Positions 9,138 to 23,630 of a stretch of DNA of 40,623 bases are shown one piece after another (the first letter of the stretch is position 1; each line of letters opens with the position of its first letter). Source of the DNA: Rubrivivax sp. (GTDB taxonomy: Bacteria; Pseudomonadota; Gammaproteobacteria; Burkholderiales; Burkholderiaceae_C); NCBI GenBank assembly GCA_044345715.1, contig JBIJAP010000001.1:1-40623 (forward strand), in the 5' to 3' direction. Under the pieces are notes generated by a model. It made no database searches. It saw only the letters and a list, made by a program, of their open reading frames with translations, and had not been told where the DNA came from. Both the position numbers and the translations under genes were made by a program.

Positions 9138-11129
9138 TCAATGGGCCACCAGGCGCACCAGCGCGTCGCCGGTGTGACCGGCCAAGGCGTCAGCGCGGTC
9201 GGCGATCAGGTAGTTGCGGCTGCCGAAGATGCGCCGCACGTAGGCGTCGGCCTGGCGGTCCAGCGTCAGGCAGAACGTGCGGATGCCCCGCGCCGCGGCG
9301 CTGGCCACTGCATGGCGCGCGTCTTCCACCAGGTGTTCGTCTTCGACCACGTCGACGTCGGACGGCTCGCCGTCGGTCAGCATCAGGATCACCTTGTGGT
9401 CCACCGTCTGGCCATCGAGCGCGGCGCTGGCGTGGCGCAGCGCCGCGCCCATGCGCGTCGACAGGCTGCCCTGCACGGCGGCCAGCCGGGCCTGTTGCTC
9501 GGCACCGAAAGGCTCGTCGAAATCCTTGATGCGCTGGTAGTTCACCTCGTGGCGGCCGTTGGAGGCAAAGCCGTGCACCGCCACGCGGTCGCGCCCGCTG
9601 TCCAGCGCCTGAGCGACCACGCGCGCAGCGCGCTTTTCGACCTCGAGCACGGTGGTGAAGCTACCCGGCACGAAGCGCCGGGTCGACACCGACAGGTCCA
9701 TCAGCAGCACGACCGCGGTGGCCCGGTGGCCGCGGCCGTGGCGGCGGAAGATGCGGCCGTCGGGCGCCAGCCGGGAGCGCTGCTGGATCGCGCCGTCCAC
9801 AGCAGCGGTGAGGTCGAGCTCATCACCCTCGGCGAGGCGGTTCAGCCGGATCGAGCGGTCTGGCGTCTGTTCGAGGCCGCGCACCCGTTGCGCCGACTTC
9901 TGTGCGAACCGGTTGACTGCGCCGCGGTGCGTTGCCGGGCCGCTTTCGATGACCGTCGCCCAATCTTCGCGTAGCGCGTCGAGCCGGTGGTCCCACTCGG
10001 GATGGCGGGTCCGGCGACGCGTGTCTACGTCGACGCTCGGCAGGTCGGGCGGCAGCTGGTCGCGGGGCCGGAATTCGTAGTCTTCTCGCGGCGCGGTGGC
10101 CTCGTCATCGAGCGGCAGCGCGGCGTTCATGTTCCACAGCAGGGTGTTGTCGTCGCGGTAGGGCGGCTGCGGGCGGTACGAGGGCAGCAAGGGCAGGCGC
10201 ATCTTCTCGACGTCGATGGCAAGCTGGCGGCCGATGGCCTCGAATGCAGCCACGTCGTGCAGGTCGGTGGCGGCCGCGTCTTCGAACAGGGCCCGGCCCT
10301 TGTTCACCCAGGCGTTGCTGTCGACGTAGGCCGGGTCGTGCAGTGCGCGCGCCAGCCGCGCGGCCAGGCCGGCGTAGTCGAATCCCGCGCTTTCGCGTGT
10401 GGCGGTGTGGAACACGCCCCACAGGCTGCGCAGGCCGGGGTAATCGCGCAGCATCAGGCGCTCGACGCGTGCGTCCTCGACGAGAGCGATGGTCGCCAGC
10501 AACATCGGCCGCCGGCTGCCCGCCAGCCGCGCCAACGGCGAGTGCCGCAGGTGCGCCGCGATGTGCGCGATGCTGGCGCGGTACAGCGCGGCCCGGTCGG
10601 CCTGGGTCGCGGCCACGGCGCAGCGGCGCGGGAAGCGGATCACGTCGTCGGCCACGGCGGGGGCGGGCGGCGGCTGGCCGGCGGCCTGCGGCTCGTGCAG
10701 CTCGATGCCGTGTGTCGTGACGCCGAAGCCGGCCAGGTAGGCCTGCAGCGCGACACGTCGTGCGAGCAGGTCGGCCGAGTCGGCGTCGGACTGCTGATCG
10801 GCAAACAGTCGCGGATCGTCGCGCTCGAAGTACTGCAGCCGCGCCTTCGGGTGGTGCTGGTGGCGCTGCAGGCCGTGCAGTGCCCACTTGCGCAGGCTGT
10901 TGGGGTCGGGCACGGTGGCGATCAGGTCGCCCAGGCGCAAGGCCAGCGCCAACGCGGCATCGGTTGCTTCGCTGGCGACCTGCGCCAGCAGGTCGACCAG
11001 CGCTGCGGCATCGGCTGCGGCCAGACCGTCGTGCCACGCCGGATCGGCGAGCAGGACATCGAAAGTCGGGCGGTCGATGCCGCGCAGCACGTCGAGCCGC
11101 CGCGTCAGCAGGTTGCCGTTGTCAGTCAT
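9138..11129 (-). CDS. CbbO/NorD-like VWA-domain adaptor protein (copy 1)
   Basis: [45 protein letters not shown] overlap with the upstream AAA+ gene. Confidence 0.88.
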
Positions 11130-11941
11130 CGCCGCGGCCCGAACTGCGCTTCGACAAAGCCGGCGAGCGCGGCCTGCAGGTCGCGGTCGTCGGTGATCGG
11201 TGTCGTCATCGCCAGGGCGCACGCGTCGTGCACGGCAATGCCTTCGGCGATCAAGGCGCCGGCATGCACCAGCATGCGCGTCGAGATGCCTTCGTCCAGG
11301 CCGCGCCCGCGCAGCGCGCGCGACTGCTCGGCGATCTTCACCAACTGCAGCGCCAGCGCCGGGGTGACGCCGCTCTCGTGCGCGACGACCTCGGTTTCCA
11401 CGGCCGGCGGCGGGAAGTCGAAGTCAATCGCACCGAAGCGCTGGCGCGTCGATGGCTTCATGTCCTTGGCGACACTCTGGTAGCCCGGGTTGTAGGAAAC
11501 GACGAGCCGGAAGTCGGGGTGCGCCTTGACCAGTTCACCGCGTTTGTCCAGCGGCAGCATGCGGCGCTCGTCGGTCAGCGGGTGGATCACGACGGTGGTG
11601 TCCTGCCGGGCTTCGACCACTTCGTCGAGGTAGCAGATGGCGCCGTGGCGGACGGCGGTGGTCAACGGGCCGTCGTGCCAGACGGTGCCCTGCGCGTCGA
11701 GCAGGTAACGCCCGACGAGGTCCGACGCAGCCATGTCCTCGTTGCAGGCCAGCGTGATCAAAGGCCGCTGCAGCCGCCAGGCCATGTGTTCGATGAAACG
11801 CGTCTTTCCGCAGCCGGTGGGGCCCTTGAGCATCATCGGCAAACCGCGCGCGAACGCTGCCGTGAAGAGTGCGACCTCGTTGCCGGCGGCGCGGTAGTAC
11901 GGTTCGCGCTCGATCAGGTAAGGCTGGAGTGGGTTTGTCAT
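11126..11941 (-). CDS. CbbQ/NirQ/NorQ (MoxR-type) AAA+ ATPase (copy 1)
   Basis: GPTGCGKT Walker [11 protein letters not shown]alker [23 protein letters not shown]. Confidence 0.95.
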
Positions 11942-11964
11942 CTTGATCCGGACCGGTTTGCGCT

Positions 11965-11996
11965 ACCGGGGCTGCCTGGAGGTCGGCGGCCCCGGT
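11965..11996. other. Strong stem-loop downstream of tubulin-like protein A (no U-tract)
   Basis: ACCGGGGCTGCC-N8-GGCGGCCCCGGT; a second hairpin lies at 12026-12042. Confidence 0.55.
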
Positions 11997-12049
11997 TCAC
12001 TCGGAATGAGCCTCGCGGCCCATCTGCGCACAGCTTGTGCGCTGCTGGC

Positions 12050-21707: not shown

Positions 21708-21731
21708 CGTGGGCTGGCCGACAACGCGGCG

Positions 21732-22583
21732 TCAGAACGACGCCGTGACGGCGGTTTCGAGCGCCTGCACCATGTCGGCGTCGTCGGTCATCGGATGCAC
21801 GATCGCCATCCGGCAGGCGGTGACGGGGTCGATGCCGCGTGACATCAGCGCGCCGGCGTGTACCAGCATGCGCGTCGATGCCCCCTCGTCCAGGCCGTGG
21901 CCCTTCAGGCGGCGCGTGCGCTCGCCGAGCGCCACCAGGCGGGCTGCATCGGCGGCGGGCAGCCGTGCTTCATGGGCAACGATCTCGGCCTCGATGGCGG
22001 CTTCGGGGAAGCCGAACTCGATGGCGGCAAAACGCTGCCGCGTCGAGGTCTTCAAGTCCTTCATCACCGTCTGGTAGCCGGGGTTGTACGAGATCACCAG
22101 GTGGAAGTCTGGGTGGGCGTGCAGCACTTCGTTGAGCTTCTCGATCGGCAGCATGCGGCGCGCGTCGGTCAGCGGGTGGATCACCACCGTGGTGTCGGCC
22201 CGGGCCTCGACCACCTCGTCGAGGTAGCAGATCGCACCGTGACGTGCCGCCAGCGTCAACGGCCCGTCCTGCCAACGTGTTCCTTCAGCGTCGAGCAGCC
22301 ATCGGCCGACCAGGTCGCCGGCAGTGATGTCTTCGTTGCACGCCAGCGTGATCAGTGGCTTGCCCAGCCGCCACGCCATGTGTTCGACGAAGCGGCTCTT
22401 GCCGCAGCCCGTCGGGCCTTTCAGCATCAGCGGCAGACGCAGCGCGTGCGCGACGTCGAACAGCGCGACTTCGCCACCGACCGCACGGTAGTAGGGTTCA
22501 CGCGTGATGCGGTACGCGGCGAGCGGGTCGGCCGGCGTGCCGGCCCCGCCCACCGGCCGCGACAACAGCGATGCCGCGGTCAT
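21732..22583 (-). CDS. CbbQ/NirQ/NorQ AAA+ ATPase (copy 2)
   Basis: [34 protein letters not shown]. Confidence 0.95.
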
Positions 22584-22589
22584 CGGGCT

Positions 22590-23630
22590 TCAGCGGTGGG
22601 CGATGGTCTGGTCGTTCGGAATGCCGTCGATCGGCGCTTCCGAGGTGCCCACGGTGCTGCGGGTGAAGGCCTCGACGGCCTCGCGCGTGCCTTCGGGGTC
22701 GTTGATCCACTTGCTGTAGAACTCGTACGGGCAGGCTGCCACACCCTTGTCGCCCTCGCGCGAGTTGATCAGCCCGGTGTAGCCGCGGTGCACCAGCTTG
22801 AAGAGGTGGTTCTCGCTCTGCGCGTGCTTGCGGAAGTCGCGGATCAGGCTCTTGCTGAGTGCCGCGTACTGGATGCCCATGTCTTCTTCACCGCACTCGC
22901 CCAGCGTGCGGCCATCGAAGCCGATGATCGCGCTGTGGCCGAAGTACGAGTACACACCGTCGAAGCCCGACGCGTTGGCCACCGCCACGTAGGTGTTGTT
23001 GGCCCAGGCCATCGCCTTGGCCATCAGCACCTGCTGGTCTTTGGCGGGGTACATGTAGCCCTGGCAGCGCACGATGAGTTCGGCGCCCTTCATCGCGCAG
23101 TCGCGCCAGATTTCGGGGTAGTTGCCGTCGTCGCAGATGATCAGGCTGATCTTCAGGCCCTTCGGGCCCTCGCTGACGTAGGTGCAGTTGCCCGGGTACC
23201 AGCCTTCGATCGGCACCCAGGGCATGATCTTGCGGTACTTCTGGACGATCTCGCCCTGGTCGTTCATCAGGATCAGCGTGTTGTACGGCGCCTTGTTCGG
23301 GTGCTCTTCGTGGCGCTCGCCGGTCAGCGAGAACACGCCCCAGACCTTGGCCTTTCGGCAGGCCGCAGCGAATATCTCGGTCTCGGCGCCGGGTACCGTG
23401 GCGGCGGTGTCGTACATCTCCTGGCTGTCGTACATGATGCCGTGGGTGCTGTACTCGGGGAAGATCACCAGGTCCATGCCGGGCAGGCCGAGCTTCATGC
23501 CTTCGATCATCTTGGCAATGTTCCTTGCGTTGTCCAGCACCTCGGCCTTGCTGTGCAGGCGCGGCATCTTGTAGTTGACGACTGCGACACCGACGGTGTC
23601 CTTGCTGCTTGAGATGTCGCCGTGGATCAT
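22590..23630 (-). CDS. amiE: Aliphatic amidase (nitrilase superfamily)
   Basis: 346 aa; MIHGDISSS...[12 protein letters not shown]; catalytic triad in FPEYS, YRKIMPW and ICDDGNYPE. Confidence 0.97.

Follow-up and report, generated by a model that had tools for sequence, protein, structure and literature searches.

The window, a 40,623-nucleotide stretch of contig JBIJAP010000001.1 from a Rubrivivax sp., carries on its minus strand three consecutive genes, tubB, a small gene and tubA, of which the two large ones encode paralogous proteins resembling tubulin and FtsZ. Sequence comparison and structure modeling indicated that this trio probably encodes a cobalt-dependent nitrile hydratase of the acetonitrile hydratase (ANHase) type, with a predicted tubulin fold and with its cysteine motif on the long subunit. 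The gene order, the orthology to a Rhodococcus trio, the fold, the position of the motif, the neighboring genes and the structure of the leaders were directly apparent from the sequences and models. The first-pass annotation had regarded the genes as a candidate new system. They are instead a variant within the ANHase class, of which little has been studied, because the ANHase of Rhodococcus jostii RHA1 appears to give the family an assigned function. Of the two roles originally proposed, the evidence favored the first, in which tubulin-fold subunits form a heteromeric metalloenzyme that acts on a C-N substrate and is matured by CobW and AAA+/VWA proteins. The gene calls, strands and sizes held up. 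tubB (14229-15755) encodes the short subunit of 508 residues, the small gene (13873-14199) a protein of 108 residues and tubA (12050-13738) the long subunit of 562 residues; a shortened copy of the long subunit, tubC (18163-19434, also minus strand), has 423 residues. The paralogy of the three large proteins was also confirmed, with 49% identity between tubA and tubC and 33% between tubA and tubB.

A tblastn search of plasmids with tubA matched 16 records, five of which were examined in their gene context. The 16 included plasmid pRHL2 of R. jostii RHA1, with 49.4% identity over 98% of the query. The order on pRHL2 was a MarR regulator, a binding protein, an aliphatic amidase, proteins of 514, 99 and 568 residues, a regulator, a nickel transporter and an acetyl-CoA hydrolase. 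The window and RHA1 proteins matched pair by pair: tubB was orthologous to the first RHA1 gene of the trio (P0125, 39%), the small protein was homologous to AnhE (37%, E 2e-28), and tubA was 49% identical to the third (P0127). In a tree built without the motif columns, short and long subunits each formed one clade (support 94/99). The computed masses of the RHA1 trio were 55.8, 11.09 and 63.0 kDa, and its small protein contains a single His, reportedly in agreement with the published ANHase. From reviews, we take this 514/99/568-residue trio to be the ANHase (alpha-AnhE-beta), which was reportedly described from R. jostii RHA1 by Okamoto and Eltis in 2007 and by Okamoto et al. in 2010. The evidence for this assignment is strong but indirect.

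Passages of the literature describe the RHA1 ANHase as a cobalt-dependent enzyme hydrating small aliphatic nitriles (PMC7193024, PMC3511329, PMC3680314), give its gene order as alpha-AnhE-beta (PMC7193024, PMC3511329) and assign AnhE the role of a metallochaperone, not that of a swapping chaperone (PMC7193024, PMC3511329, PMC3680314). PMC3766881 gives the metal content of the enzyme as 1 Co, 2 Cu and 1 Zn. The reviews disagree on maturation, as a section of PMC7329996 instead places ANHase among the self-subunit-swapping enzymes. The window and RHA1 operons share the short-small-long order, near-identical sizes, the CxxxCxC motif and, as neighbors, an aliphatic amidase, an AmiC-type binding protein, a MarR regulator and a NiCoT permease. 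They differ in that the motif lies on the short (first) subunit in RHA1 and on the long (third) subunit in the window. The window trio was filed as a variant and not as a plain member because the motif is off the first-gene subunit. Further genes accompany the window trio, namely those for CobW, a peroxiredoxin, the ferredoxins, two CbbQ/CbbO pairs and tubC, as does AmiC/AmiR antitermination, and its host is of betaproteobacterial type (closest matches Burkholderiales) rather than a Rhodococcus. Cobalt transporters of the energy-coupling factor type were present in two other Rhodococcus loci. An ANHase-type operon was also seen on plasmid pNit of the nitrile biocatalyst strain R. rhodochrous ATCC BAA-870 (L084). 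A term search of the BAA-870 genome paper (PMC6941271) found AnhA and AnhE 0 times and acetonitrile hydratase named only for RHA1.

The first GTPase-loop motif reads IGIGRTG in tubA, IGVGGAG in tubB and VGIGRTG in tubC, and AGGTGSG occurs in all three; the motifs first annotated were in place, except that the first one starts with V and not I in tubC. Pfam scores were borderline, with weak matches for the three proteins: tubA scored 28.9 and 26.7 bits with Tubulin and Tubulin_2 (both below the cut-offs, 33 and 27), and with Tubulin_2 tubB scored 43.5 bits and tubC 27.1 bits. Structure prediction settled that tubA models as both domains of the tubulin/FtsZ fold. The AlphaFold model, built from a 102-row alignment, had a mean predicted local distance difference test (pLDDT) of 89 and a predicted template modeling score of 0.90. 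Foldseek matched it to tubulin, FtsZ and CetZ at E values of about 2e-10. VIA-align superposed it on CetZ (3zid) with a Z of 21.3 over 312 residues, at a root-mean-square deviation of 4.8, and on tubulin (4ffb) with a Z of 19.2. Tubulin-superfamily chains filled rows 1-17 of the matches, and the first unrelated fold followed at a Z of 9.7. Sequence searches of the PDB gave only weak tubulin/CetZ matches for tubA (best E 0.008), found no solved structure of any subunit, and returned nothing for the small protein and one unconvincing match for RHA1 AnhE. The small-protein model (pLDDT 85) had a best Z of 4.6 and no Foldseek match at E 0.001, which does not show a new fold. In the ESM Atlas, every cluster that matched at 0.9 or more was unnamed.

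The T1 and T4 (AGGTGSG) loops were near-invariant in 48 long-subunit and 54 short-subunit rows. The T7 region looked degenerate. In the tubA model, helix H293-316 continued directly into H318-327 without a loop of T7 length. The family has D-x-G-R here, with D/E319 and R/K322 each in 48 of 48 long-subunit rows, whereas the FtsZ of a relative reads NVDFED; the register between the two is not fixed, as hhalign aligned the long subunit to FtsZ over residues 179-269 only. The sequences and the model suggest that the GTPase completed in trans was likely lost in the long subunit. Complex prediction for tubA and tubB gave a score of 0.49, against 0.00 for the best control. Of 157 solved pairs, 116 reached the mark set for this score, as did 2 of the 215 mismatched ones, but only 18 of the solved pairs and both mismatched ones lay at the mark but no higher than 0.60. 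At least 74% of the contacts agreed between runs and the partner pLDDT was at least 85. This prediction weakly supports the heteromeric arrangement proposed earlier. The window genome (76% complete) yielded no further family member and no FtsZ. The missing FtsZ was read as genome incompleteness and not as a replacement of FtsZ.

The cysteine motif of the window trio is CIWGCAC, at C506, C510 and C512 of tubA; the same place in tubB reads SLGDGGH. The arrangement in RHA1 is the reverse, with CLLGCAC on the short subunit and PLSGATG at the corresponding place on the long one. Among the best 120 of 776 tubA-like, 467 tubB-like and 895 RHA1-short-subunit-like matches, the motif was present in 120/120, 0/120 and 120/120 proteins, respectively. 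We then compared whole operons in 163 fetched loci, comprising 80 from GTDB (the best 80 of 303), 78 from metagenomes (from the best 80 of 185) and 5 from plasmids. Subunit ends could be scored in 126 of these and not in the other 37. The motif occurred on both subunits in 61 operons, on the long one only in 61, on the short one only in 4 and on neither in 0; in the 71 GTDB operons alone, the numbers were 14, 57, 0 and 0. The sequence flanking the motif was nearly identical whichever subunit bears it.

To place these states, the motif columns were dropped and a 59-row tree (IQ-TREE, LG+G4, quick) was rooted on three archaeal proteins. Six changes of motif state were needed. From this tree, two were read as losses on the short subunit, in the proteobacterial clade that includes the window and in L152, and one as a loss on the long subunit, in Rhodococcus plus P0368; the remaining three would be additional long-subunit copies that lack the motif. 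A 105-row FastTree was concordant, except that two extra-copy groups were joined there, which calls for a long-branch warning. Motif-less rows nest within motif-bearing ones on the short-subunit side and the long-subunit side alike, which fits a two-site ancestor with reciprocal losses. The short-subunit motif was caught decaying a second time, independently and not yet completely, in L150-L152 (WLWGSGC, CLWGTAY). Two-motif operons (L067-L077, L080, L081) were found mostly in gammaproteobacterial metagenome-assembled genomes, several of them of 2-3 Mb and, by record title, including Arenicellales and Ca. Poriferihabitaceae.

The classical Co/Fe nitrile hydratases (NHases; PF02979/PF02211, activators P14K and NhlE) would catalyze the same reaction, and they share a three-cysteine motif, the need for a metallochaperone and pairing with an amidase. 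They differ in their CxxCxC spacing and subunits of about 25 kDa, compared with CxxxCxC, 53-63 kDa and a tubulin fold in the window. No NHase match in Pfam or NCBIfam and no CxLCSC were found in tubA, tubB or tubC. The window also contains a classical Co-type NHase operon (15977-17640, minus strand) with nthA (CTLCSC), a beta subunit in two open reading frames (ORFs) and a P14K-type accessory gene; it is an incidental neighbor of the trio. The N and C halves of the beta subunit are encoded by overlapping minus-strand ORFs (16712-17038 and 16365-16715). A sequencing error was considered and rejected, as the same split occurred in 6/6 related nth loci (L007, L008, L010, L011, L062, L064). Because the beta subunit is split in all six, the enzyme appears to be a natural three-subunit NHase. 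A split beta subunit is described in part of PMC7329996.

The nearest relatives outside the family pointed to archaea. An unfiltered phmmer search of 1.84 billion representatives gave 182 matches at E 0.001. The best full-length matches outside the family were proteins of 860-920 residues, aligned over residues 18-275 with about 30% identity and E values down to 1e-31, whose cluster members were named from Saccharolobus, Bathyarchaeota and Geothermarchaeales. These proteins exceed the Tubulin_2 cut-off, and hhalign related them to the family with a probability of 100 over 304 columns. They resemble the FtsZl1 architecture, an N-terminal FtsZ domain with an extended coiled coil, as part of Makarova and Koonin 2010 (PMC2875224) describes it. 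A term search of that paper gave 0 occurrences of 'Rhodococcus' and 'hydratase'. By sequence, coiled-coil FtsZ-like proteins of archaea are thus the closest relatives found outside the family, which appears to descend from FtsZ-like proteins. The long helical insertion, which the archaeal proteins have (P0419, P0427, P0432, P0437, P0446 and others), is absent from the 562-residue tubA model. Compared with the tubulin/FtsZ superfamily in general (CetZ, FtsZ, TubZ, BtubA/B, FtsZl1/FtsZl2), the window subunits share both domains (Z 15-21), the T1 and T4 loops and a putative pairing of paralogues in a heterodimer. They differ in a C-terminal extension with the cysteine motif, no coiled coil, no recognizable T7 NxDxxD and a metabolic context. 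By eye, the last ~120 residues of the archaeal proteins resembled the C-terminal part of the ANHase subunits.

The leaders of the two units had a common design. The tubB leader (15776-15863, minus strand) has two hairpins with the hexaloops ATCAAG and AACAAG and an intrinsic terminator, and the amiE leader (23713-23785, minus strand) has AGCACC and ATCAGC. In both, the second hairpin overlaps the 5' arm of the terminator (z -6.9 for tubB and -3.2 for amiE). On both strands of the window, this pattern of twin hairpins and a U-tract was confined to the leaders of amiE and tubB. In related loci it was found before the short-subunit gene in 14/67 cases and before amiE in 4/39, compared with 1/79 for the long-subunit gene, 1/67 for cobW, 0/76 for the small gene and 0/38 for cbbQ; shuffled sequences gave means of 0.15-0.25. 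The terminator alone did not separate the leaders of the short subunit (23/68) from those of the long subunit (16/79) and cobW (15/67). Searching window positions 3000-28500 with Rfam gave 0 matches at E 1. The published ANTAR target consists of twin hexaloop hairpins, the second overlapping a terminator, in whose loops the first base is A and the fourth is G, and the AmiC/AmiR system at Pseudomonas aeruginosa amiE has the same design with A1 (both from portions of PMC3369931). The window differs from that system, as far as those portions describe it, in that the element also heads the hydratase operon and that position 4 is mostly A; A at position 1 was a requirement of our search pattern. 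The loop consensus was approximately A-[AT]-C-A-A-N in the window and in the short-subunit and amiE leaders of L002-L082. The elements are possibly a proteobacterial AmiR recognition variant that has no Rfam model. The genes for the amide sensor AmiC (23842-25071, profile match) and for AmiR (AmiR_N + ANTAR, ORF 24869-25723, domain from residue 94) lie on the plus strand beside amiE. Because both leaders are ANTAR-like and amiC and amiR are adjacent, amide induction of both units is likely; the early description of the proteins as amide-inducible has thereby gained support. In the RNA runs, all shares were at most 0.20. Contigs from four runs covered parts of the region, and one contig of 2535 nt spanned Q1, tubA and the small gene at ~93%; contigs cannot show transcription and were not used as evidence.

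The accessory genes first annotated around the trio were all found, and several recur. All lie on the minus strand. A CobW/COG0523 metallochaperone GTPase with a GCLCC motif (8132-9112) was the most constant neighbor, followed in the window by a NiCoT nickel/cobalt permease (7268-8095, profile match), a peroxiredoxin-like redoxin (6738-7238), a TonB-dependent receptor (4629-6716) and two thioredoxin-like 2Fe-2S ferredoxins (3876-4615, starts approximate). The aliphatic amidase gene amiE (22590-23630; amide to acid and ammonia) scored 719 bits with NF009802, whose cut-off is 427. In the 53 GTDB loci with full flanks, cobW was present in 51, a ferredoxin in 46, peroxiredoxin in 37, any amidase in 36, amiE in 32, any CbbQ in 32, amiR in 28, the receptor in 2 and nthA in 5. 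amiE and the amide-sensing genes were linked to the operon across all motif states. Extra AnhE-like paralogues were seen near the operon, mostly in two-motif loci (L090, L092, L094, L096-L098, L101, L104, L105, L118, L120, L124, L127, L130, L154, L155, L161, L163; also L016 and L058).

The two CbbQ/CbbO-type pairs were as first described, with AAA_5 and CbbQ_C domains and intact Walker A/B motifs in the ATPases, and MIDAS-like DxSxST and TDGEP in the VWA proteins. Q1 (11126-11941), a MoxR AAA+ ATPase of the CbbQ/NorQ type, follows the long subunit, and the ATG of the CbbO/NorD-type O1 (9138-11129) overlaps its stop; a longer O1 ORF starts from GTG 11222. The second pair is O2 (19491-21707, 35% identical to O1) and Q2 (21732-22583, 67% identical to Q1); all four genes are on the minus strand. 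CbbQ was placed directly after the long subunit in 17/80 GTDB loci. In a tree of 52 CbbQ proteins, all 18 of those directly after the long subunit, including Q1, clustered together (support 96), joined by a single row placed after NiCoT. Q2 grouped outside this clade, among amiE-linked and other copies. By this tree, Q1/O1 accompanies the hydratase within a single alpha/beta-proteobacterial branch, and Q2/O2 accompanies the amidase. Aliphatic amidase needs no metal. CbbQ/CbbO pairs also stood directly after amiE in other loci (L002, L013, L014, L017, L018, L061, L069, L073-L076, L080, L081). NorQ/NorD is described in part of PMC13036017 as a MoxR AAA+/VWA pair for metal insertion, and by this analogy Q1/O1 likely helps to load metal. 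Such systems, in the portions of PMC13036017 and PMC9976466 that deal with NorQ/NorD and CbbQ/CbbO, have the same AAA_5 and CbbQ_C ATPase, a VWA partner and an adjoining metalloenzyme gene. Their targets are nitric oxide (NO) reductase or Rubisco, whereas the candidate targets in the window would be nitrile hydratase and aliphatic amidase.

The arrangement amiE-Q2-O2-tubC, first taken as a unit, was not conserved. Window-type tubC lay beside the main operon in seven other loci, all with CbbQ after the long subunit and with tubC following Q1-O1; tubC as a dedicated partner of amiE-Q2-O2 was accordingly rejected, and because of these loci its position after O2 in the window is read as a rearrangement. 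tubC ends at the equivalent of long-subunit residue 483 and so cannot carry the motif; it also lacks the EYPRYYWNP insert. Motif-less third copies of the long subunit, of ~420-540 residues, were seen in L053, L054, L056, L060, L069, L071-L075 and L082. In the 59-row tree, these grouped with the long subunits of their own lineages and not with the window tubC, while in the larger FastTree the Beijerinckiaceae copies joined the tubC group, so that two or three origins are suggested.

These observations can be combined into a working mechanism. An amide bound by AmiC would free AmiR, which would probably antiterminate the tubB and amiE leaders. The TonB-dependent receptor and NiCoT probably import cobalt, and CobW and the AnhE-like protein quite likely load it on C506/C510/C512 of tubA; by analogy, the site would hold cobalt in the manner of the classical NHase three-cysteine site. 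tubA would likely be the cobalt-bearing catalytic subunit and tubB its structural partner. Their heterodimer is expected, with considerable confidence, to hydrate small aliphatic nitriles to amides, from which AmiE would release acid and ammonia. The nucleotide pocket is, somewhat more likely than not, kept for structure or maturation and not for filament dynamics. There is a slight preference for Q1/O1 remodeling the apo-enzyme for metal insertion, as NorQ/NorD would for NO reductase, with Q2/O2 serving the amidase. More tentatively, the peroxiredoxin and ferredoxins might serve redox handling of the tubA cysteines. More speculative still, tubC could replace tubA as a subunit without catalytic activity during assembly or in regulation.

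The alternative that survives best is that the same scaffold acts on another substrate in the long-only variant: cyanamide, an isonitrile, thiocyanate, a larger nitrile, or an amide. With the active motif copy on the other subunit, the pocket walls would come from a different sequence. The tubA relatives are 77-93% identical among themselves and only 49% identical to RHA1, and classical NHase alpha was found in 40 of 50 carrier genomes. On the other hand, the linkage of amiE and the amide-sensing genes across motif states and the near-equal surroundings of the motif on either subunit speak for nitriles. An 80%-identical tubA relative was named from Natronocella acetinitrilica, and since a cited paper presents this species in its title as degrading acetonitrile, the relative points to acetonitrile. 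Altogether, a different substrate appears improbable. 

The other role originally proposed, in which the tubulin-fold proteins serve as a GTP-dependent scaffold or maturase for classical NHase or amidase, would fit the nearly invariant GGTGSG loop, the position of nthAB between the two units in the window and the presence of nthA somewhere in those 40 carrier genomes. The distribution contradicted it. Classical NHase alpha was present in 31/60 relatives (23/36 in the genus) and these genes in 0/60, and because of this a scaffold for classical NHase is most unlikely. The carriers were the genomes of 50 of the 80 GTDB loci, and the 60-relative control was differently composed. nthA was near the operon in only 5 of the full-length loci, and 10/50 carriers had no NHase alpha over the cut-off, several of these genomes being incomplete. 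PF02979 also gave no match on pRHL2, in a search in which control genomes were silent and the family matched elsewhere. The idea of true cytoskeletal or moonlighting proteins, with the enzyme also polymerizing in a GTP-dependent way, draws on the full two-domain fold, the conservation of loops T1 and T4, a putative heterodimer comparable to alpha/beta-tubulin or BtubA/B and the archaeal FtsZ-like relatives, but it has very little probability given the patchy, often plasmid-borne distribution, the metabolic regulation, the missing T7-length loop in the model and D-x-G-R in place of NVDFED (register not proven).

Several points weigh against the assignment of the window trio as an ANHase-type nitrile hydratase. 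A second hydratase can look redundant because 40/50 carriers have classical NHase alpha; a shared nitrile niche explains this frequency, compared with 31/60 in the relatives, as well. The link from the published ANHase to the RHA1 locus comes from reviews, with no locus tag seen in print, and 49% identity does not fix the substrate. Cobalt binding by CxxxCxC was inferred from its likeness to CxLCSC, and no enzyme of the long-only type is known to have been assayed. The motif counts came from biased samples: the GTDB loci were the best 80 of 303 by likeness to tubA, the metagenome scan was seeded with the motif as a pattern, and the counts include kin and some duplicates. The twin-hairpin pattern was defined after viewing the two window leaders, and loop position 4 was A in 26/36 and G in 5/36, instead of the published G. 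Q1/O1 and tubC are not core components because they are absent from most loci.

The tubulin/FtsZ proteins characterized so far are known for forming filaments. A tubulin-fold ANHase, if confirmed as a metalloenzyme, would bring a metabolic enzyme into the superfamily and would mean that nitrile chemistry on a cysteine claw arose twice. No statement of the tubulin fold, the FtsZ-like descent or the lineage-dependent position of the likely metal site of ANHase was found in the searchable literature, which was mostly open-access and did not include the primary ANHase papers. Since the motif occurs naturally in three states (on both subunits, on the long one only and on the short one only), the active site, the use of half-sites and the evolution of pseudo-enzymes can be tested directly. 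Only one member has been studied, but the family is larger, with 303 matching stretches in GTDB, a one-genome-per-species collection, mostly labeled hypothetical or tubulin-like. Nitrile biocatalysts could be drawn from it that have so far gone unused, and a screen that looks for classical NHase genes would overlook this way of using nitriles. 

A joint scenario can be imagined, which as a whole we consider rather unlikely. An archaeal-type FtsZ-like cytoskeletal protein without its former coiled coil would have acquired a metal claw of three cysteines and turned into a nitrile hydratase, in a second independent invention of nitrile hydration. Duplication would have given a two-site heterodimer whose sites were switched off reciprocally, at least twice on the short subunit and once on the long one. 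Dead third copies of the long subunit would have arisen about three times and been recruited as subunit-swapping maturation partners, convergent with P14K/NhlE. A CbbQ/CbbO pair borrowed from the amidase would drive cobalt insertion, and bound GTP would gate assembly. If true, a tubulin-fold metalloenzyme with chemistry other than that of a GTPase would occur in as many as a few hundred species, annotated as 'tubulin-like'.

Some features of the window lie farther from the trio. An amidase-signature amidase (469-1986, minus strand) and a second AmiC-like binding protein (2109-3335, minus strand) extend the amide cluster. A MarR-like ORF (3312-3851, plus strand) was recognized by eye; MarR and a binding protein are also present in the Rhodococcus loci. 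Positions 28500-33700, beside selO, contain a tyrosine integrase (32291-33658, minus strand), a T5orf172-domain ORF (30958-31836, minus strand) and unannotated ORFs, and this segment is likely a small integrated element.

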